This document shows positions 5,857 through 50,655 of a DNA stretch of 64,000 nt, one piece after another. The notes under the pieces are model-generated. The model searched no databases. It saw only the letters and a program-made list of their open reading frames with translations, and was not told where the DNA came from. Numbering within the stretch: position 1 is the stretch's first letter; each line of letters begins with the position of its first letter. The DNA comes from Candidatus Berkelbacteria bacterium (GTDB lineage: Bacteria > Patescibacteriota > UBA1384 > XYA2-FULL-43-10 > 1-14-0-10-43-13), in contig JBAWZC010000001.1 in the NCBI GenBank assembly GCA_037143235.1, positions 65,132 to 129,131 on the forward strand. The letters are read 5' to 3'. The translations under genes were made by a program, and so were the position numbers.

Positions 5857-5922
5857 TGTCATTCCCGCGAAGGCGGGAATCTATTAAACAATTTGTGGAT
5901 TCCCGCCTTCGCGGGAATGACA
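5857..5922. repeat. TGTCAT-hairpin mini-element, two inverted copies (TGTCATTCCCGCGAAGGCGGGAATC ... GATTCCCGCCTTCGCGGGAATGACA) with 16-nt spacer
   Basis: Perfect 25-nt inverted pair, each arm itself a GC hairpin with GAAG loop; same unit recurs at 44558, 23713, 27737, 28032. Confidence 0.85.
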
Positions 5923-19540: not shown

Positions 19541-19640
19541 TTGATTTTCTCCACTCCTTTTCAAGGAGAGGTGGGGTGAGGTTTAATGTTTAAGATGAAA
19601 CCTCATCTATCTTCTCCTTCAAAAGGAGAAGAACCCTTGG
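19541..19640. repeat. structured ~100-nt repeat R1 (three hairpins: CTCCTTTTCAAGGAGAG / GTGAGGTTT..AAACCTCA / TTCTCCTTCAAAAGGAGAA)
   Basis: Near-identical second copy R2 at 19691-19825; contains SD/anti-SD-like self-complementary segments. Confidence 0.8.
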
Positions 19641-19690: not shown

Positions 19691-19825
19691 TTGTATTTCT
19701 CCTCTCCTTTTCAAGGAGAGGCAGGGGTGAGGTTTAATGTTTTAAAATGAAACCTCAGCTAACCCATTCGTCTTCGCTCAGGGCAGGCTTTCTCCTTGAA
19801 AAGGAGAAGAACCCTTAGGTTAATT
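19691..19825. repeat. structured repeat R2 (copy of R1 with 30-nt internal insertion)
   Basis: Same three hairpins as R1. Confidence 0.8.
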
Positions 19826-22933: not shown

Positions 22934-24826
22934 CTAAGATAATACTGCCTTGATACGCCGTACCCCTGCACTCGAGCTCTCTTCTTTCAAAATCTTGAAA
23001 TGACCAAGCTCACCAGTTCTGTTGGCATGGGGACCGCCACAAATCTCCTTAGAAAAATCATCGACGGTATAAACTTTAACTTTGTCGCCATATTTGGCGT
23101 CAAATACACCCATAGCACCCTGTCCTTTAGCTTCATCCACACTCATCTCTGCCATCTCTACAGGCAGGTCTTTCTCAATTTGTGCGTTCACTAGAGCTTC
23201 GACCTGTTTAATTTGTTCGACAGTCATTTTTTCAGGATAAGAAAAGTCAAATCTGAGTCTTTCTGGCGTGATGTTTGATCCTTTTTGGTAGACATTCTCA
23301 CCCAAAACGAACCGTAAAGCAGCCAACATCAAGTGAGCAGCGGTATGCAACTTCGTTGTTTCTTCTCCAGCATCGGCCAGACCACCCTTGAACATCCCCG
23401 CGGAAGCCGTACGAGACAAATCTTGGTGATTCCTTAGCATCACTTCAAAAGTTTTTCTGGTATTATTTTCTATGGGGATATTTAATCGTGTTGCCTCCTC
23501 TGCACTCAATTCATAAGGAAATCCAAAAGACTGATATAAATTGAAAAATTCTTCAGCAGTAAATTCTACTTTTTTCCACTCTTCTTCATTGCTCTTTGTC
23601 TTCATGGCGGCAATAATTTTAAACTGAAGCAGCCCTCTTGTAAGTGTTCCTCTAAATTTCTCCTCTTCTTTTTCCAACTCGAAGAGAATCATTTTTTGTT
23701 TGTCATCATTTGCTGTCATCTCGAGCGAAGTCGAGAGATCTTTTTCTGTAGATTTCTCCACCCTCTCTTCGAGTGGAGTCGAAATGACAGACCCAAAATA
23801 AACTCCGTTGTAAATCTCGAAAACTTTGCGAGCAACCTTGGCGGTAAAATTCTGTTCAATCCCCAGCTGTTGCCCCTTCACAATCGCCCGCCTGATCAAA
23901 CGACGCAAAACATAGCCTCTATCCTTATTTGAGGGCACGACCCCATCATTGATCATAAATGTGGCAGCTCGAATGTGATCAGCAATTACACGAAAAGATC
24001 TCTCGACTTCACTCGAGATGACAGAGGAAGAGCTATATTTTTTACCAGAAATACTTTCAATTTCTCCCAAAATAACCTCGAATAGATCAGTTTCGTAAAC
24101 ATTATCTCTCCCTTCGAGGTATGCCAGTAAACGCTCTAACCCACCACCAAAATCGACATTTTTTTGTTTCAAAACTTCCAGAGTACCATCAATGTTCTTA
24201 TTAAATTGCATAAAAACATTATTGCCGATTTCTACCCACTTCTTGTCGGCTGGATCATATTTCAGAGGGGCATCCCCTTCACCTGTCCAAACAAATATTT
24301 CGGTATCATGGCCACACGGACCGGTGACACCAGCAGGACCCCACCAGTTGTCTTCATAACCCAAAAACGCAATTCTCTCATCGGGGATACCGAGAGATCG
24401 CCAAATACCCGCAGCCTCCTCGTCCTTAGCAAGATCATTTGCAGAGTCACCCTGAAAACAAGTAACAGCCAGATTCTTCCGATCGATCAAAAGTTCTACC
24501 GTCAAAAATTCATAGATATTTTTGATCGCTTCTTCTTTGAAGTAATCCCCGAGTGACCAATAACCAAGCATCTCAAAAAATGTGCAATGAGTTTTGTCTC
24601 CAACCTCGTCAATATCACCCGTCCTGATGCATTTCTGAACATTACAAAGCCTCTTGCCCGCCGGATGGCCTTCCCCCATCAGATATGGCACCAGAGGGTG
24701 CATACCAGCAGTCGTAAAGAGCACTGTCGGGTCATTTTCTGGCACCAAAGAAGCAGAAGGCACCACTTGGTGCCCCTTTTCTTTGAAGAAATTGATAAAT
24801 TTTTGTCGTAGTTTTATAGAAGTCAT
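22934..24826 (-). CDS. alaS: alanyl-tRNA synthetase (short form: catalytic + editing domains, no C-Ala domain)
   Basis: N-term MTSIKLRQKFINFFKEKGHQVVPSASLVP..TTAGM; editing HxxxH (HTAAHLMLAAL), CGGPH; only 630 aa. Confidence 0.88.
   Translation of the reverse strand: MTSIKLRQKFINFFKEKGHQVVPSASLVPENDPTVLFTTAGMHPLVPYLMGEGHPAGKRLCNVQKCIRTGDIDEVGDKTHCTFFEMLGYWSLGDYFKEEAIKNIYEFLTVELLIDRKNLAVTCFQGDSANDLAKDEEAAGIWRSLGIPDERIAFLGYEDNWWGPAGVTGPCGHDTEIFVWTGEGDAPLKYDPADKKWVEIGNNVFMQFNKNIDGTLEVLKQKNVDFGGGLERLLAYLEGRDNVYETDLFEVILGEIESISGKKYSSSSVISSEVERSFRVIADHIRAATFMINDGVVPSNKDRGYVLRRLIRRAIVKGQQLGIEQNFTAKVARKVFEIYNGVYFGSVISTPLEERVEKSTEKDLSTSLEMTANDDKQKMILFELEKEEEKFRGTLTRGLLQFKIIAAMKTKSNEEEWKKVEFTAEEFFNLYQSFGFPYELSAEEATRLNIPIENNTRKTFEVMLRNHQDLSRTASAGMFKGGLADAGEETTKLHTAAHLMLAALRFVLGENVYQKGSNITPERLRFDFSYPEKMTVEQIKQVEALVNAQIEKDLPVEMAEMSVDEAKGQGAMGVFDAKYGDKVKVYTVDDFSKEICGGPHANRTGELGHFKILKEESSSAGVRRIKAVLS
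23701..23789. repeat. TGTCAT-hairpin mini-element (inverted pair) inserted in-frame inside alaS
   Basis: TGTCATCTCGAGCGAAGTCGAGAGATC ... CTCTCTTCGAGTGGAGTCGAAATGACA; encodes linker peptide ...VISTPLEERVEKSTEKDLSTSLEMT... Confidence 0.7.
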
Positions 24827-25664: not shown

Positions 25665-25713
25665 CTAAATTATAACACAAAAGATATTTCAAAGTAAAAA
25701 TGATTGGGATTAC

Positions 25714-25742
25714 ACCCCCTCCTACCTCAGGGAGGGGGTGCC
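25714..25742. terminator. GC-rich hairpin (cccctcctacctcagggagggggtg)
   Basis: Perfect 9-bp GC stem in AT-rich context at 3' end of 25722-26099 ORF. Confidence 0.55.
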
Positions 25743-26193: not shown

Positions 26194-26952
26194 CTATGGT
26201 CTCAAAGTGCCGGCAAAAACCTGCCAAGCCAAAAGTGATTTCGCTACGAGAGACAAGACGATATAGACCCACTCACCGTAGATATAATTCTTCCATTTGC
26301 CAACCTTTTTGTACTGCAAAACTTGGTTGACCGCGAAAATATTGAAGAAGACAAACATAGAAAAGAAAATCCAATAGACAAATGTTGGCGGGTTGCTGAC
26401 ACTACCAGGACTCCACAAATACAAACCGATTGCCAACCATGGGGCGATACCAGCGATACAACCGAAAATAAACGCTGTCCAATTGGTCTTTTGCGTCGAC
26501 TGATTGTGCAGCTCCATCATCCAACCAAAGAGAATCATCGAAACATTGGCAAAGAAAATACCGATCAAGGCCGCGCTATCTGTAATTCCAACCAATTCAG
26601 AGATAACAAGGATCATTACCGACGAACTGAAGGCATACTCGATCCAACGAGCATAGTTTGCACCTTTGGCCAAATTTTTATTGTACCAACCATTAATACC
26701 TGGCAAGGAAATCAACAAATGAGCCAGAGAAGACATAAATAAAAATGTTGCAATCATCGGTGCCAACGGAACCTCAAACCAAGTCTTGGGATCAGGCACC
26801 AGGGTTTGCGTTGCTGGATTGAACTTCAAAAAAGAATTTACAACTGGTACTTTCATATCTGTAGACAGTACCATCATCGCTACGCCCTGCACAAAATGCA
26901 GACAGGACATAAAAATATTAAACTTCCGCAAGCGCACGAACTCTTTTTCCAC
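26194..26952 (-). CDS. heliorhodopsin (7-TM retinal protein with inverted topology)
   Basis: 252 aa; near-colinear with prototype HeR 48C12: RWIEYAFSSSVMILVI, NVSMILFGW, FGCIAGIAPW, FFNIFA..QYKKVGKWKNY..GEWVYIVLSLVAKSLLAWQVFAGTL (Schiff-base Lys in SLVAK). Confidence 0.85.
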   Translation of the reverse strand: MEKEFVRLRKFNIFMSCLHFVQGVAMMVLSTDMKVPVVNSFLKFNPATQTLVPDPKTWFEVPLAPMIATFLFMSSLAHLLISLPGINGWYNKNLAKGANYARWIEYAFSSSVMILVISELVGITDSAALIGIFFANVSMILFGWMMELHNQSTQKTNWTAFIFGCIAGIAPWLAIGLYLWSPGSVSNPPTFVYWIFFSMFVFFNIFAVNQVLQYKKVGKWKNYIYGEWVYIVLSLVAKSLLAWQVFAGTLRP

Positions 26953-26989: not shown

Positions 26990-27607
26990 TTATCTGCTTA
27001 TACAGGTACCGACAACTGGATATTTCGTAATAGCCGAAAGGGCATGTCTGGTAAAAAAATCATTTGTCAGATCTTGCCCGGCAGCGTGTCCGTAATGATA
27101 ACCATTTTTGAAAACAGAAGAGAGATCGTAAACAGTCCCATTGACGGCCAGATAAGCCGCTACGCCGTTTTTACCATTATACTGCGCCAATTGAGACGCT
27201 GTAAATGTTCGCGTGGTGCTAGAACTTGATATTTGAGATGTTGAAGAAGTCGATGTGTCAGAGGCAACACTGACGACCTGACCACCCTCCTCACTCTCTC
27301 CTTTGCCATAATACCGGTCAACATAAACAAAACCGATGACAAAAGTCATGTATACCAACAATAAAACTATTTTGGAGAATATATTCCAAAAGGACCACCG
27401 CTTCAATGCCAGATGAATAGCAAAAGAAGTATGAATAACGAAAGAAATCAACAGCATGTAAGTCAAAATATTGTTATGAATCGTCGTCGCCCACGAAGCA
27501 TCTATGATCCCCTTCGTCATACCATAACCGCTTATAATATAAAGAAAGAGTGTGATCAACAACACCCAAGCCGCGATGCGATCAAGTTTAATTAACATTT
27601 TCATCAT
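26990..27607 (-). CDS. membrane protein with C-terminal cytochrome b5-like heme/steroid-binding domain
   Basis: 3-4 N-terminal TMs, Ser/Thr linker, then LAQYNGKNGVAAYLAVNGTVYDLS...GYHYGHAAGQDLT (cyt-b5-like fold). Confidence 0.6.
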   Translation of the reverse strand: MMKMLIKLDRIAAWVLLITLFLYIISGYGMTKGIIDASWATTIHNNILTYMLLISFVIHTSFAIHLALKRWSFWNIFSKIVLLLVYMTFVIGFVYVDRYYGKGESEEGGQVVSVASDTSTSSTSQISSSSTTRTFTASQLAQYNGKNGVAAYLAVNGTVYDLSSVFKNGYHYGHAAGQDLTNDFFTRHALSAITKYPVVGTCISR

Positions 27608-27614
27608 AATATGA

Positions 27615-27700
27615 AAACTCCTCAGCTTCTCAGTTTGTCAACTTTCTAACTTATCAGCTTAAACACTTACTGGCTTATCAGCTTAAACTCTTACCAGTTT
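27615..27700. repeat. intergenic repeat family 'AGCTTAAACACTTACTAGCTTATCAGCTT' (tandem units)
   Basis: Similar arrays at 28085-28175 and 50560-50655. Confidence 0.75.
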
Positions 27701-27708
27701 ACTCGCTT

Positions 27709-28057
27709 CTGTCATCTCGAGCCCCCCCCTTTTTTTTGTCATCTCGAGCTTGTCGAGAGATCTTTCAACTCTGGATTCATCTCACAAATCAGAGCTAATT
27801 TCTTTGACCGACTCCATCTTTTTAACTGTTTTTCTCTTTCTAATATTACTTTAACATCATTTGATAATTCGAAATATACTAATTTATGGCATCTGTATTT
27901 CTTTGTAAATCCATCGACTAAATTGTTCTTATGCTCATATACTCTTCGGACAAGATCATTGGTCATGCCGATATACAACACATTACTAAAACTGGCCACA
28001 ATATAAACATAATATGTTTTATCTTGCATAAGATTTCTCCACAAGGTCGAAATGACA
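27709..28057 (-). mobile_element. mini mobile element: GIY-YIG endonuclease gene bracketed by inverted TGTCAT-hairpin repeats (27737-27762 and 28032-28057)
   Basis: TGTCATCTCGAGCTTGTCGAGAGATC on the 3' side and its relative GATTTCTCCACAAGGTCGAAATGACA (inverted) immediately 5' of the ORF start; solo half-copy plus poly(C)/poly(T) at 27709-27737. Confidence 0.6.
27739..28029 (-). CDS. GIY-YIG homing endonuclease-like protein
   Basis: Start MQDKTYYVYIVAS...LYIGMTNDLVRRVYEH (GIY..YIG, R, E motif); ORF-track N-extension is repeat-derived. Confidence 0.8.
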   Translation of the reverse strand: MQDKTYYVYIVASFSNVLYIGMTNDLVRRVYEHKNNLVDGFTKKYRCHKLVYFELSNDVKVILEREKQLKRWSRSKKLALICEMNPELKDLSTSSR

Positions 28058-28173
28058 GGAGTGTGATGGTCCAAACAACAGAAAAACCGGATGAAACGAC
28101 ACTGATTCAGCTAACTGGCTTTCTGGTATAAACAATTATTAGCTTAAACACTTACTAGCTTATCAGCTTGTTT

Positions 28174-36035: not shown

Positions 36036-36178
36036 TGGTGCCCGAGGCGGCCTGCCCGCCATCGCAAGGCTCAGGCATTGCAGGCGGGGAGTCGAACCCG
36101 CATAGCTTGAGGCCACATCATTTTAAGTGATGCGTACCTGCCTGCCGGCAGGCAGGTATACCATTCCACCACTCGCCC
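36036..36178 (-). pseudogene. tRNA-Leu(UAA)-like chimeric/disrupted copy
   Basis: Shares 5' acceptor/D-arm and anticodon arm (CATCA-CTTAAAA-TGATG) with intact tRNA at 36305-36389 but has a 20-nt palindrome (CTGCCTGCCGGCAGGCAGG) after the D-arm, a ~34-nt insert after the T-arm, and a 3' acceptor (CTCGGGC) that pairs with the 5' fragment at 36690, not its own 5' end. Confidence 0.55.
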
Positions 36179-36304: not shown

Positions 36305-36389
36305 TGGTAGGCGAGGCGGGAGTCGAACCCGCATCCCTTGAGGGGACATCATTTTAAGTGATGCGTGTATACCATTCCACCACTCGCCC
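36305..36389 (-). tRNA. tRNA-Leu(UAA), CCA encoded
   Basis: GGGCGAG..GTGGAATGGTATAC..CATCA-CTTAAAA-TGATG..long variable arm..GCGGGTTCGACTCCCGC..CTCGCCT-ACCA. Confidence 0.85.
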
Positions 36390-36390
36390 A

Positions 36391-36632
36391 TTATTGTTTT
36401 AACAAACCGTCGATCTCTTCTCTTCCGATACCTGATTTAAAATACTTTTCTCTTTCCCGTGCTTCTGTTCTAGTGGCATATTTCTCAAAATGAATCAACT
36501 TCAAGGGCATTTTATTTTTCGTTGACCGAACTCTTCCAGAATTATGCTGACTTATTCTTCTTTCAAGATTATCAGTTAATCCTTTGTAAACAAAATTACG
36601 AGACTCTGATTTTAGAAGATACACATAATACA
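36391..36632 (-). CDS. GIY-YIG homing endonuclease-like protein
   Basis: Start MYYVYLLKSESRNFVYKGLTDNLERRISQHN; ATG directly abuts a duplicated tRNA anticodon-loop segment; ORF-track N-extension is tRNA-derived. Confidence 0.8.
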
Positions 36633-36690
36633 TTTTAAGTCCTTCGTGCCTGCCTGCCGGCAGGCAGGTATACCATTCCACCACTCGGGC
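36633..36690 (-). pseudogene. tRNA-Leu 5'-half fragment (acceptor GCCCGAG..D-arm..palindrome..anticodon loop CTTAAAA)
   Basis: GCCCGAGTGGTGGAATGGTATAC-CTGCCTGCCGGCAGGCAGG-CACGAAGGACTTAAAATG; ends at GIY-YIG ATG. Confidence 0.6.
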
Positions 36691-36692
36691 TT

Positions 36693-37700
36693 TTATACAA
36701 TTTCCCAAATATTATTGACCTTGGATAGCTCACCTTCGATCGTAAACCCAGCAGCTTTTTTATGGCCGCCGCCGCCAAGCAGTGAGGCTAATTTTGACAG
36801 GTCAACATCATCTCGCTCAGTTCGCAAGCTCCCCATGATAGTACCATTTTCACTCTCGTATATCAACAAAGTCGCCCGAGTTCCGGGCACAGTATTCAGC
36901 AAATTAATCAAACCAGAAAGATCATCCTCTGACGCCCCAGATAGCAATCTATCTTCTTTCGACAAAACTGAATAAGCAATGCCAAACTCATCATTTATCG
37001 ACAGACGATCCATCGCCACTCCCCAAATTTTCAGCTTTGAAACTGACTTTTCGTGAGAAATATTCTCAGAGATTTTCTTCAATCTAGCTCCACAACACAA
37101 CAGCTTGGAGACTATTTTCATCACATCTTCCGAGGTATTGCTGTGCTGAAAACCGCCTGTATCAGTGTATATTCCGCACAAAATATAGGTCGCAACATCA
37201 GCATCAATATCACAGCCTAGTCCAGTTACGATCCGATAAACTATTTCAGCCGTCGAACTTGCCTGATCATCCACATAGTTCACATCGGCCAGTCGCCAGA
37301 GATCATTTTTGGGATGATGGTCGATATTGATAACAAAATTGCCATTTTTCTTGCAGTCAAGAATCATTTGCTCAACCTTGGTTCGACGCAAATCACCACA
37401 ATCCAAAATAATGATCGTCTCTTCTTGGGAAACAGTGAGACTATGAAGTCCATTCGTACTAACAATCTGGTCGTGCTCACCGAGAAATCGGAAAACTTCC
37501 GGTACTGGGTCAGCACAAATCATTCTGACTTCCTTGTTCTTTTGCCTCAACATTGCCGCCATTGCAAGAATAGACCCGACGGCATCACCATCAGGACTCT
37601 CGTGGCAAATGAGCACAAAAGATTTGGTTCCCTCGATCAACTTTTTCAGATTTGAGAATGAACCCATGTGAAATATAATTACCGATTGATCAAGATACAA
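36693..37700 (-). CDS. DHH/DHHA1 family phosphoesterase (NrnA-like)
   Basis: LICHESPDGDAVGS, NIDHHP motifs. Confidence 0.85.
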   Translation of the reverse strand: MYLDQSVIIFHMGSFSNLKKLIEGTKSFVLICHESPDGDAVGSILAMAAMLRQKNKEVRMICADPVPEVFRFLGEHDQIVSTNGLHSLTVSQEETIIILDCGDLRRTKVEQMILDCKKNGNFVINIDHHPKNDLWRLADVNYVDDQASSTAEIVYRIVTGLGCDIDADVATYILCGIYTDTGGFQHSNTSEDVMKIVSKLLCCGARLKKISENISHEKSVSKLKIWGVAMDRLSINDEFGIAYSVLSKEDRLLSGASEDDLSGLINLLNTVPGTRATLLIYESENGTIMGSLRTERDDVDLSKLASLLGGGGHKKAAGFTIEGELSKVNNIWEIV

Positions 37701-41253: not shown

Positions 41254-41484
41254 TCAAATTCTTTTTTTTAAATAGGCTCTGCCAAATCCAGTCTTCAATG
41301 ATTTTTCTCTCGAGATTGCTTTTTCTCTGCTCAGACATGCCTCGTAATACACCAACTTGAAAGGAATTCTGTCGCTCGTTGATTTCACCTTGCCAGCATT
41401 ATGTTCTTCCACTCGTCCTTTCAAATCATCAGACCACCCGATATACAAATCGTTATCTCGCAAACTCTTTAATACATAAGTGTA
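41254..41484 (-). CDS. GIY-YIG homing endonuclease-like protein
   Basis: MYYTYVLKSLRDNDLYIGWSDDLKGRVEEHN; 6 nt from tRNA-Leu(CAG); upstream leader shares GGCCTGCCCGCC..ATCGCAA..CAGGCATTGC block with insert in tRNA-like 36036-36178. Confidence 0.8.
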   Translation of the reverse strand, partial: YTYVLKSLRDNDLYIGWSDDLKGRVEEHNAGKVKSTSDRIPFKLVYYEACLSREKAISREKSLKTGFGRAYLKKRI

Positions 41485-41617
41485 ATACATAGCCTTATTA
41501 TATTCCATTTCACCCGCCTGCAAAAGCTGCTGCTTTAGCAATGCCTGCCAGCAATCGCTTTGCGATAGCAATGCAGGCTGGCGGGCAGGCCATTCGCCCA
41601 TAAACAAATAAAACTCT

Positions 41618-44557: not shown

Positions 44558-44589
44558 TGTCATTCCCGCGCAGGCGGGAATCCACAAAT
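44558..44589. repeat. solo TGTCAT-hairpin unit (TGTCATTCCCGCGCAGGCGGGAATCCACAAAT) between convergent rlmN and membrane gene
   Basis: matches arm + CACAAAT tail of 5857-5922 element; probably also acts as terminator. Confidence 0.8.
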
Positions 44590-45474: not shown

Positions 45475-45738
45475 TTATTTGACTGACAAATAACTGGCTA
45501 ATTGTTTTTTCAAAAATCTGCGACCAGATCCACTTTTTAGAAATTTCTCTCTTCCCAGAGCGTCTCTCTTGTCAAGATAACTTTCGGAATAAATCAACTT
45601 CCAACATCCTTGCTTCCGACCGGTATAATCACCGCCGATCTTGCTATTATGTTCCGTCAATCTGCGATCGATATCAGTCGTAAATCCTGTATACCAAGAC
45701 TTATCGATCGAATTCTCAATCAGATAAACGAAAAACAT
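45475..45738 (-). CDS. GIY-YIG homing endonuclease-like protein
   Basis: MFFVYLIENSIDKSWYTGFTTDIDRRLTEHN; abuts tRNA-Cys by 1 nt. Confidence 0.8.
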   Translation of the reverse strand: MFFVYLIENSIDKSWYTGFTTDIDRRLTEHNSKIGGDYTGRKQGCWKLIYSESYLDKRDALGREKFLKSGSGRRFLKKQLASYLSVK

Positions 45739-50559: not shown

Positions 50560-50655
50560 AATTATAAACCTATTCGACTACATTCGGAAGCTTATTAGCT
50601 TAAACACTTACTAGCTTACCAGCTTAAACACTTACTAGCTTATTAGCTTAAACCA
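50560..50655. repeat. 'AGCTTAAACACTTACTAGCTTA' tandem intergenic repeat
   Basis: three tandem units; same family as 27615-27700, 28085-28175. Confidence 0.8.

Follow-up and report, generated by a model that had tools for sequence, protein, structure and literature searches.

A probable Ssn-family nuclease cassette between inverted hairpin repeats in a Berkelbacteria genome, with related repeat units in frame in alanyl-tRNA synthetase

A family of small GIY-YIG nucleases whose genes go with oriented hairpin repeats, Ssn, was described in 2025, and here we analyse a locus of this kind, a GIY-YIG gene between two inverted hairpin units, in a 64,000-nucleotide stretch of a Candidatus Berkelbacteria genome (GCA_037143235.1, contig JBAWZC010000001.1, positions 65,132 to 129,131), which we call the window. 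In the published work (Chenal et al. 2025, Nat Commun 16:2388; PMC11893778), the Neisseria repeat dRS3 was recognized as part of a longer, oriented hairpin, NTS (CGTCATTCCCGCGMAVGCGGGAATCYRG), and one gene was found to go with NTS across bacteria: ssnA, which encodes a 94-residue, single-domain GIY-YIG protein (CDD cd10448). Repeats of the wider class, SRMs, were given the pattern HGTCWYN(0-2)YYVSBRHN(0-5)WNVSBRGN(0-2)RNCYNB; at least one SRM lies near 71% of ssnA homologues, and 42% are flanked by SRMs on either side. SsnA binds the NTS hairpin only as single-stranded DNA (ssDNA) and cuts a few nucleotides upstream of it, the substitutions Y6A, Y17A and E64A each abolish cutting, and in Neisseria the enzyme lowers transformation by NTS-bearing DNA. 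This restriction of Neisseria transformation by site-specific ssDNA cleavage is the only activity of the family that has been shown experimentally, and the characterized enzymes come from Neisseria, N. elongata, N. wadsworthii and Wolbachia. The first half of the unit can be cleaved if the second is provided in trans, natural arrays of half-units being undescribed, and 2% of N. meningitidis NTS copies lie inside genes, in-frame copies being unmentioned. The resemblance of NTS-ssnA-NTS to an insertion sequence (IS) and an analogy with REP repeats and RAYT were raised as a hypothesis, and mobility was left open (PMC11893778).

The window locus is very probably an SRM-ssn-SRM module of this family, and, because the hairpin-gene-hairpin architecture was published in 2025, it is no newly discovered type of element. 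As a first-pass annotation of the window had claimed, inverted TGTCAT-hairpin-ATC units (27737–27762, plus strand, and 28032–28057, minus strand) stand on both sides of a gene for a 96-residue, single-domain GIY-YIG nuclease, here called ssn (27739–28029, minus strand; ATG at 28029, stop TGA at 27741–27739). Like the published modules (PMC11893778), the locus combines a protein of about 95 residues that has a single GIY-YIG domain and matching catalytic spacing with outward hairpins on both sides of the gene, each flanked 5′ by GTCAT and ending 3′ in ATC, and with further dispersed repeat copies, three of them near-identical to the NTS consensus. It differs in its host, a bacterium of the candidate phyla radiation (CPR); in the stems of its flanking units (TCTCGA/TCGAGA and ATTTC..GAAAT), which lie outside the published search pattern; and, compared with the 2% of N. 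meningitidis NTS copies within genes, in having units in frame in an essential gene.

The 96-residue protein matches the Pfam family GIY-YIG (PF01541, E=1.5e-14, residues 6–77), with no second domain, and an AlphaFold2 model based on a 28-sequence alignment (pLDDT 91) forms one compact domain with the beta-beta-alpha-alpha-beta-alpha-alpha topology expected for GIY-YIG. All family-invariant residues are kept, including Y9, Y19, R29, E66 and N85, and the catalytic set Y9/Y19/E66 corresponds to Y6, Y17 and E64 of N. meningitidis (Nm) SsnA. Tyr and Glu are 47 apart, exactly as in Nm SsnA; the Tyr–Tyr spacing is 10, compared with 11 in Nm SsnA, a difference that the alignment shows to be a one-residue loop deletion. 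Homologues flanked by the exact NTS core are 54–60% identical to the window protein. An identical database entry, annotated as a GIY-YIG nuclease family protein, comes from a 144,911-bp contig of a Candidatus Berkelbacteria MAG; an NCBIfam search with the Ssn-type protein assigned no family, and phmmer against the PDB returned nothing at E≤0.01. A fold search of the PDB recovered only generic GIY-YIG folds (UPF0213 BH0048, Slx1 and the UvrC N-terminal domain, 18–24% identity), the best structural match of the model being 1zg2 (UPF0213/YhbQ-type, 24% identity). No same-species relative was found, the window Ssn and alanyl-tRNA synthetase (AlaRS) proteins each occurring on one contig only.

The flanking units are interlocked with the gene. 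The upstream unit (variant C, TGTCATTTCGACCTTGTGGAGAAATC; 28032–28057, minus strand) has the gene's own orientation, its plus strand reading GATTTCTCCACAAGGTCGAAATGACA; it ends 2 nt short of the ssn ATG, and its 3′ arm is the GGAG ribosome-binding site (28037–28040), 7 nt 5′ of that ATG. The downstream unit (variant B, TGTCATCTCGAGCTTGTCGAGAGATC; 27737–27762, plus strand) is inverted relative to ssn, and the TGTCAT ends of both units point outward. It encodes the final residues of the protein, DLSTSSR, and its ATGACA (27737–27742), the reverse complement of TGTCAT, supplies the TGA stop. The C-terminal KDLS is conserved throughout the family (D90 invariant, L91 nearly so), so that what the unit overlaps is a genuine portion of the protein, not an added tail. 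The first-pass annotation had taken both terminal extensions of the longer open reading frame (ORF) to be encoded by the repeats, which is right for the N-terminal extension of the 111-residue ORF (PVISTLWRNL) and wrong for the C terminus, where the 96-residue protein already contains DLSTSSR. Just outside the downstream unit, on the same strand, a 5′ half-unit (TGTCATCTCGAGC, 27710–27722) is followed by a C8T8 spacer (together 27710–27736); the half-unit had been noticed earlier, and the homopolymer, then read as C8T9, loses one T, which is the first base of TGTCAT.

Further units are dispersed through the window. A scan for GTC followed by a stem that begins with AT and spans 5 bp or more, then C, found 8 full units in 64 kb, compared with 0.46 expected from dinucleotide shuffles (maximum 2), plus 2 half-units. 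Unit ends are consistent (TGTCAT ... ATC), and the sequences fall into three variants, A (TGTCATTCCCGCGmAGGCGGGAATC), B (TGTCATCTCGAG....GTCGAGAGATC) and C (TGTCATTTCGAC...TGGAGAAATC). When they are folded as ssDNA, the strongest hairpins are those of variant A, at about −9 kcal/mol (z −4.3 to −4.9); those of variant B are moderate, at −4.2 to −4.9 kcal/mol. The published SRM pattern fits three window units, all of variant A and near-exact copies of the Neisseria NTS (0.13 expected). A canonical NTS-type doublet of variant A (TGTCATTCCCGCGAAGGCGGGAATC; 5857–5881, plus, and 5898–5922, minus) lies upstream of secA, and a solo canonical NTS-type unit (TGTCATTCCCGCGCAGGCGGGAATC; 44558–44582, plus) lies between convergent ORFs. 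A second doublet (B at 23714–23740, plus; C at 23751–23789, minus; peptide SVISTPLEERVEKSTEKDLSTSLEMT) and a solo B unit (23997–24023, minus; peptide SVISSEVERS) are in frame in the AlaRS gene. This cargo-less doublet has the order and make-up of the pair around ssn (C on the ssn-sense strand, B inverted) and likewise an outer half-unit, a 7-nt stub TGTCATC with its spacer inside AlaRS, just outside the B unit (23701–23713, plus). Both cargo-less pairs and the solo unit near 44558 had been listed in the first-pass annotation and are present; the pair at 23.7 kb is not intergenic, as its position within AlaRS makes plain, and the list had overlooked the unit at 23997–24023. GC skew is negative across the whole window, with no replication origin evident to explain unit orientation, and an Rfam scan of the window returned tRNAs only. 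Upstream of secA, ATGACA at 5857–5862 provides a spurious ATG that lengthens the secA ORF by about 30 codons; TGTCAT-type units are probably a cause of mis-called gene ends in CPR annotations.

Several lines of evidence tie the units to this gene type well beyond the window. We compared 80 homologous loci (L023–L102) from species-representative genomes of more than 10 phyla, drawn from Acidobacteriota, several CPR groups, Chloroflexota, Clostridia, Alpha-, Beta-, Gamma- and Deltaproteobacteria including Rickettsiaceae, Cyanobacteria, Bifidobacterium and others, whose proteins are 51–64% identical to the window protein, with one at 49%. First, units defined structurally, as GTCWY plus a perfect stem of at least 5 bp, occur at the expected place and orientation in 66 of the 80 loci (shuffled mean 4.05) and on both sides of the gene in 38 (shuffled mean 0.05), so that the association noticed earlier between the units and this GIY-YIG gene is both specific and general. 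Second, their orientation is mostly that seen in the window: upstream units number 48 in the gene's orientation and 18 inverted, and downstream units 56 inverted and 16 in the gene's orientation. Third, the exact NTS core GTCATTCCCGCGAAGGCGGGAATC flanks several loci, for example in a Rickettsiaceae genome (L090), a betaproteobacterium (L077) and a member of the Saccharibacteria (L100). Fourth, the window holds an internal control in three UPF0213/YhbQ-type GIY-YIG genes (36391–36636, 41254–41490 and 45475–45738, all minus strand), which are 35–40% identical to the Ssn-type gene: no TGTCAT unit lies within 300 nt of any of them. UPF0213/YhbQ small proteins (1zg2, 1ywl) share the fold and size of the Ssn-type protein, and the UPF0213-type window genes match PDB 1ywl (E=5e-8); the Ssn-type gene has no PDB sequence match and, unlike them, has TGTCAT units.

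Applied to the same 80 loci, the published SRM pattern recovers units in 12, compared with 66 for the structural definition, and because it misses most units it is too narrow as a criterion of membership. As it retrieves about one-fifth of the structurally defined units beside ssn, published SRM counts are probably underestimates. Judged by eye, loci with TCGAG/TCGAC-type units are no closer to the window protein (55–58% identity) than loci with other units. The comparison widens the host range of the Ssn/SRM system to Berkelbacteria, several other CPR groups, Clostridia, Chloroflexota and Bifidobacterium; the core locus itself re-discovers the 2025 system from raw sequence and alone adds little.

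Units also lie inside AlaRS. The ORF at 22934–24826 (minus strand) is alanyl-tRNA synthetase (Pfam tRNA-synt_2c and tRNA_SAD) and holds three in-frame units, the doublet and the solo B unit. Both insertions are shared with the two closest of 12 orthologues (P0122 and P0123, 71–73% identity); the other ten have gaps of 8 and about 32 residues in their place, among them P0129, whose second site is occupied by an unrelated insert. Between the window and its sister locus L004, the solo B unit is identical at 26 of 27 positions and the C unit at 35 of 39, compared with 70.7% across the AlaRS gene; of all 27-nt segments of that gene, only about 1% match at 26 of 27 positions. Among 120 CPR AlaRS sequences, unit-type peptides (including VIPAKAGIQ, HSREGGN, VIPTEVEES, CHPELVSGS and VIPAPDQVEGKAPAGIQ) are inserted in several lineages at the two positions that correspond to residues ~268 and ~343 of the window AlaRS (P0135, P0151, P0155, P0233 and others). 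This was confirmed at the DNA level for three CPR AlaRS loci: in L111 two copies of the exact NTS core (1356–1378 and 1693–1715) are read in different frames, L112 has an inverted unit pair (1515–1613) and L113 four units of two variants (1342–1749). Because unit variants and reading frames differ between lineages, the insertions appear to be separate events in these lineages, at two sites that are permissive or preferred. Other positions of AlaRS carry hairpin-like peptides as well, for example PSTRSARSGS near residue 590.

A parallel exists in the Rickettsia palindromic elements (RPEs), short palindromes that, as Ogata et al. reportedly found in 2000, lie in frame in protein-coding genes, essential ones included. 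Like the AlaRS units, RPEs are reportedly translated as extra loops; at about 100–150 bp they are longer than SRM units, and they are not known to have an assigned enzyme. In-frame SRM peptides (VIPAKAGIQ, HSREGGN, VISTPLEERVEKS) probably account for many of the unusual insertions and false N-terminal extensions seen in annotated CPR proteins. Literature searches for the SRM peptides and motif returned no paper besides PMC11893778, and in the searchable literature we found no description of in-frame units in AlaRS, of directional half-unit repeats or of the narrowness of the SRM pattern.

The half-unit beside ssn is likewise one instance of a wider pattern. The 5′ part alone (some 12 nt, comprising GTCAT and the 5′ arm) often stands beside a full unit, on its 5′ side and separated by a spacer of 8–16 nt, and half-unit plus spacer is repeated one to four times in tandem 5′ of full units across phyla (for example L064, L045, L040, L101, L031, L072 and L099). 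Among the 325 units of the 80 loci, the first 11 nt are repeated within 50 nt upstream in 22 cases and downstream in 5. Layouts of unit, spacer and half-unit in Berkelbacteria are found in L001 (4752–4841), L106 and the window (27710–27762). A break 5′ of the unit followed by mis-aligned re-copying of the flank and the 5′ arm would yield this pattern, and the direction of the repeats suggests that Ssn cleavage leaves a scar.

Comparison of close homologues bears on whether the gene and its units travel together. The homologues closest to the window protein (76–86% identity) and the window itself place ssn in five neighbourhoods: between FtsX and a cytochrome-b5 protein in the window, gyrA and an unknown gene in P0002 (86%), a nucleotidyl-transferase and recO in P0009 (81%), beside DUF4012 in P0006 and P0008 (77% and 76%), and between PNPase, at some remove, and UDG in P0020 (76%). 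In a DNA alignment of six loci, invariant columns run from the TGTCAT of the upstream unit to the ATGACA of the downstream unit, and outside these limits the sequences are unrelated. The inverted unit that overlaps the 3′ end of ssn is present in all five close homologues. In L001, the locus of the 86%-identical homologue, the upstream unit is found at the window's spacing ('ggagaaatcttATG') and 95-bp C...B doublets lie on both sides of the ssn cassette. From these comparisons we conclude that the ssn gene and its two units behave as a portable cassette over evolutionary time, and the question of mobility left open in PMC11893778 gains comparative evidence in the boundary-limited conservation, the varied contexts and the AlaRS insertions.

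Several observations weigh against reading the locus as an Ssn module and a travelling cassette. The B and C units that flank ssn lie outside the published SRM pattern, and the upstream unit (28032–28057), folded as ssDNA, is a marginal hairpin (−2.6 kcal/mol, z −1.05). No Neisseria protein is among the top 120 hits of a betaproteobacterial homologue. Target-site duplications were looked for, and no direct repeat abuts any unit pair in the window; nor was an excision product seen. No empty site of the cassette was found in 18 FtsX-bearing metagenome loci of 32–73% identity; none of these carries cytochrome-b5, heliorhodopsin, ssn or a unit downstream, and because the region downstream of FtsX is unconserved in 18 of 18 loci, this comparison is uninformative. 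Finally, any mobility would be read from lineages that are only about 70% identical in AlaRS.

By analogy with the Neisseria, N. elongata, N. wadsworthii and Wolbachia enzymes, the window Ssn would bind its cognate hairpin solely in single-stranded form, would recognize it through the conserved 5′ flank GTCAT and the stem, and would cut a few nucleotides 5′ of the unit. With units pointing outward, cuts are predicted at both cassette boundaries, on opposite strands. Further copies of the unit are present as inverted doublets and solos between genes and, in this lineage, also in frame in AlaRS. Ssn cleavage may drive this spread of units or cassette, for example through break-induced copying or gene conversion between SRM copies, and in this Berkelbacteria organism the system might serve to control recombination or incoming ssDNA. 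What is observed here is the module's architecture, the association of gene and units across phyla, conservation that stops at the cassette boundaries, and the presence or absence of insertions among AlaRS orthologues. We tentatively propose that the cassette may be an active self-propagating element of an undemonstrated class, a hairpin-bounded GIY-YIG ssDNA nuclease analogous to REPIN/RAYT, whose gene-less doublets would colonize essential CPR genes in frame and whose half-unit repeats would be the scar of cleavage and mis-aligned repair.

The analogy can be stated closely. REP/REPIN–RAYT and IS200/IS605 systems likewise place a gene between inverted hairpin repeats, disperse gene-less inverted doublets and, as the Ssn family does, use an enzyme that recognizes ssDNA hairpins and cuts beside them. 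Their enzyme is an HUH Y1 transposase (TnpA/RAYT), whereas the window enzyme is a GIY-YIG hydrolase from which no covalent intermediate is expected, and IS200/IS605 cuts one strand, whereas the cuts predicted here fall on opposite strands.

These differences bear on the alternative of an autonomous transposon, in which the GIY-YIG protein would be a transposase that cuts both hairpin ends and moves the cassette together with doublets resembling miniature inverted-repeat transposable elements (MITEs). Outward-TGTCAT inverted units do bound the only conserved block, the cargo-less doublets share the B/C make-up and the outer half-unit, close homologues occupy varied neighbourhoods, two loops of AlaRS have received different unit variants in several lineages, and the IS-like architecture was already remarked on in PMC11893778. 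The first-pass annotation had gone in the same direction by proposing a MITE-like mobile family, and of what such a family would offer, the consistent ends, B/C doublets and varied contexts are present; a target-site duplication, an empty site and a known transposase are not. GIY-YIG enzymes are hydrolases that form no covalent DNA intermediate and carry out no strand transfer on their own, which would have to come from other factors, and no GIY-YIG hydrolase is known to be a transposase. The two predicted cuts fall on opposite strands, not on a single strand as they do in IS200/IS605; neither a duplication nor a conserved target is seen at the window pairs; the 18 FtsX loci contain no empty site; and the AlaRS insertions are old, being common to lineages of 71–73% AlaRS identity. 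We consider a transposon in this strict sense doubtful.

A homing-like spread would have Ssn nick ssDNA at an SRM, whereupon repair from another SRM-flanked locus would copy ssn or units, the units serving as homology arms and the half-units arising as mis-aligned repair products. The nuclease gene does appear to travel with its own recognition sites, as do GIY-YIG homing endonucleases of the I-TevI type; unlike these, the window protein has no separate DNA-binding domain and no intron or intein context, and the documented substrate of the Ssn family is ssDNA, not double-stranded DNA. The 5′ half-units lie on the side where PMC11893778 places the cut (22 upstream and 5 downstream among 325 units), AlaRS units that are 90–96% identical between lineages in a gene that is 70.7% identical are compatible with homogenization, and distant phyla carry the same unit variants. 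The homology arms would measure only 25–40 nt, however, the high conservation of units could equally reflect selection for recognition by the nuclease, no direct evidence of conversion tracts was found, and the repair model was devised here to fit the pattern. A homing-like route is, on balance, unlikely.

Less probable again is a host-serving system in which neither part moves: the hairpins would be fixed cis-elements (controlling recombination or transformation, or acting as transcription or translation signals), the nuclease a housekeeping partner, and the differing neighbourhoods a result of rearrangement and paralogy. Modulation of transformation by Neisseria SsnA through NTS (PMC11893778) agrees with this, as do the ribosome-binding site furnished by the upstream unit, the age of the insertions, all of those observed being ancient, and the poor conservation of CPR gene order, with the region downstream of FtsX different in all 18 loci. 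Such a system would leave unexplained why different variants and frames sit at the same two AlaRS loops, which requires repeated insertion of units, and why conservation ends exactly at the unit ends; moreover, that the same unit types accompany proteins 51–64% identical in different phyla suggests that the cassette has moved horizontally as a whole.

Generic intrinsic terminators lying by coincidence near a small GIY-YIG gene have next to no probability and can be excluded: some stem-loop units are intergenic, such as that at 44558 between convergent ORFs, but a scan found no terminator-like site at the units and no T-tract follows the stems near the gene, three units are translated inside the essential AlaRS ORF, and neither the non-palindromic GTCAT flank nor the cross-phylum association (66 of 80 loci, 4 expected) would be explained.

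Around the cassette, other features of the window deserve mention. A 34-nt direct repeat flanking it (27651–27684 and 28136–28169, 94% identity) was considered as a target-site duplication and rejected; it belongs to a tandem-repeat family with a 24-nt period (CTTATCAGCTTAAACACTTACYAG), intergenic at 27641–27701, 28129–28169 and 50588–50652, the first two arrays sitting on either side of the cassette. Directly downstream of the cassette, on the same strand, a gene for a membrane protein with a C-terminal cytochrome-b5-like domain (26990–27607, minus) adjoins a heliorhodopsin gene (26194–26952, minus; Pfam E=2e-103).

Each of the UPF0213-type genes lies immediately 5′ of a tRNA gene (tRNA-Leu-taa, tRNA-Leu-cag and tRNA-Cys/Gly) and is preceded by a tRNA fragment. 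Besides the intact tRNA-Leu(taa) (36305–36389, minus), a second copy (36075–36176, minus) is interrupted precisely at the junction of its D arm and anticodon stem, where the 20-nt palindrome CTGCCTGCCGGCAGGCAGGT lies; this copy is degenerate at the 3′ end and receives no ARAGORN call. A third tRNA-Leu 5′ fragment with the CTGCCTGCCGGCAGGCAGGT palindrome (36645–36697, minus) lies directly upstream of a UPF0213-type GIY-YIG gene. The interrupted tRNA-Leu copies look like the work of a system, distinct from the SRM units, that targets tRNAs for insertion or duplication.

Hairpins of other kinds also occur in the window. An unrelated repeat of about 100 nt has two copies in one intergenic region (19545–19640 and 19697–19818), both of which hold the hairpins CTCCTTTTCAAGGAG and TTCTCCTTnAAAAGGAGAA, and a further strong hairpin, CACCCCCTCC-N8-GGAGGGGGTG, lies at 25713–25740.

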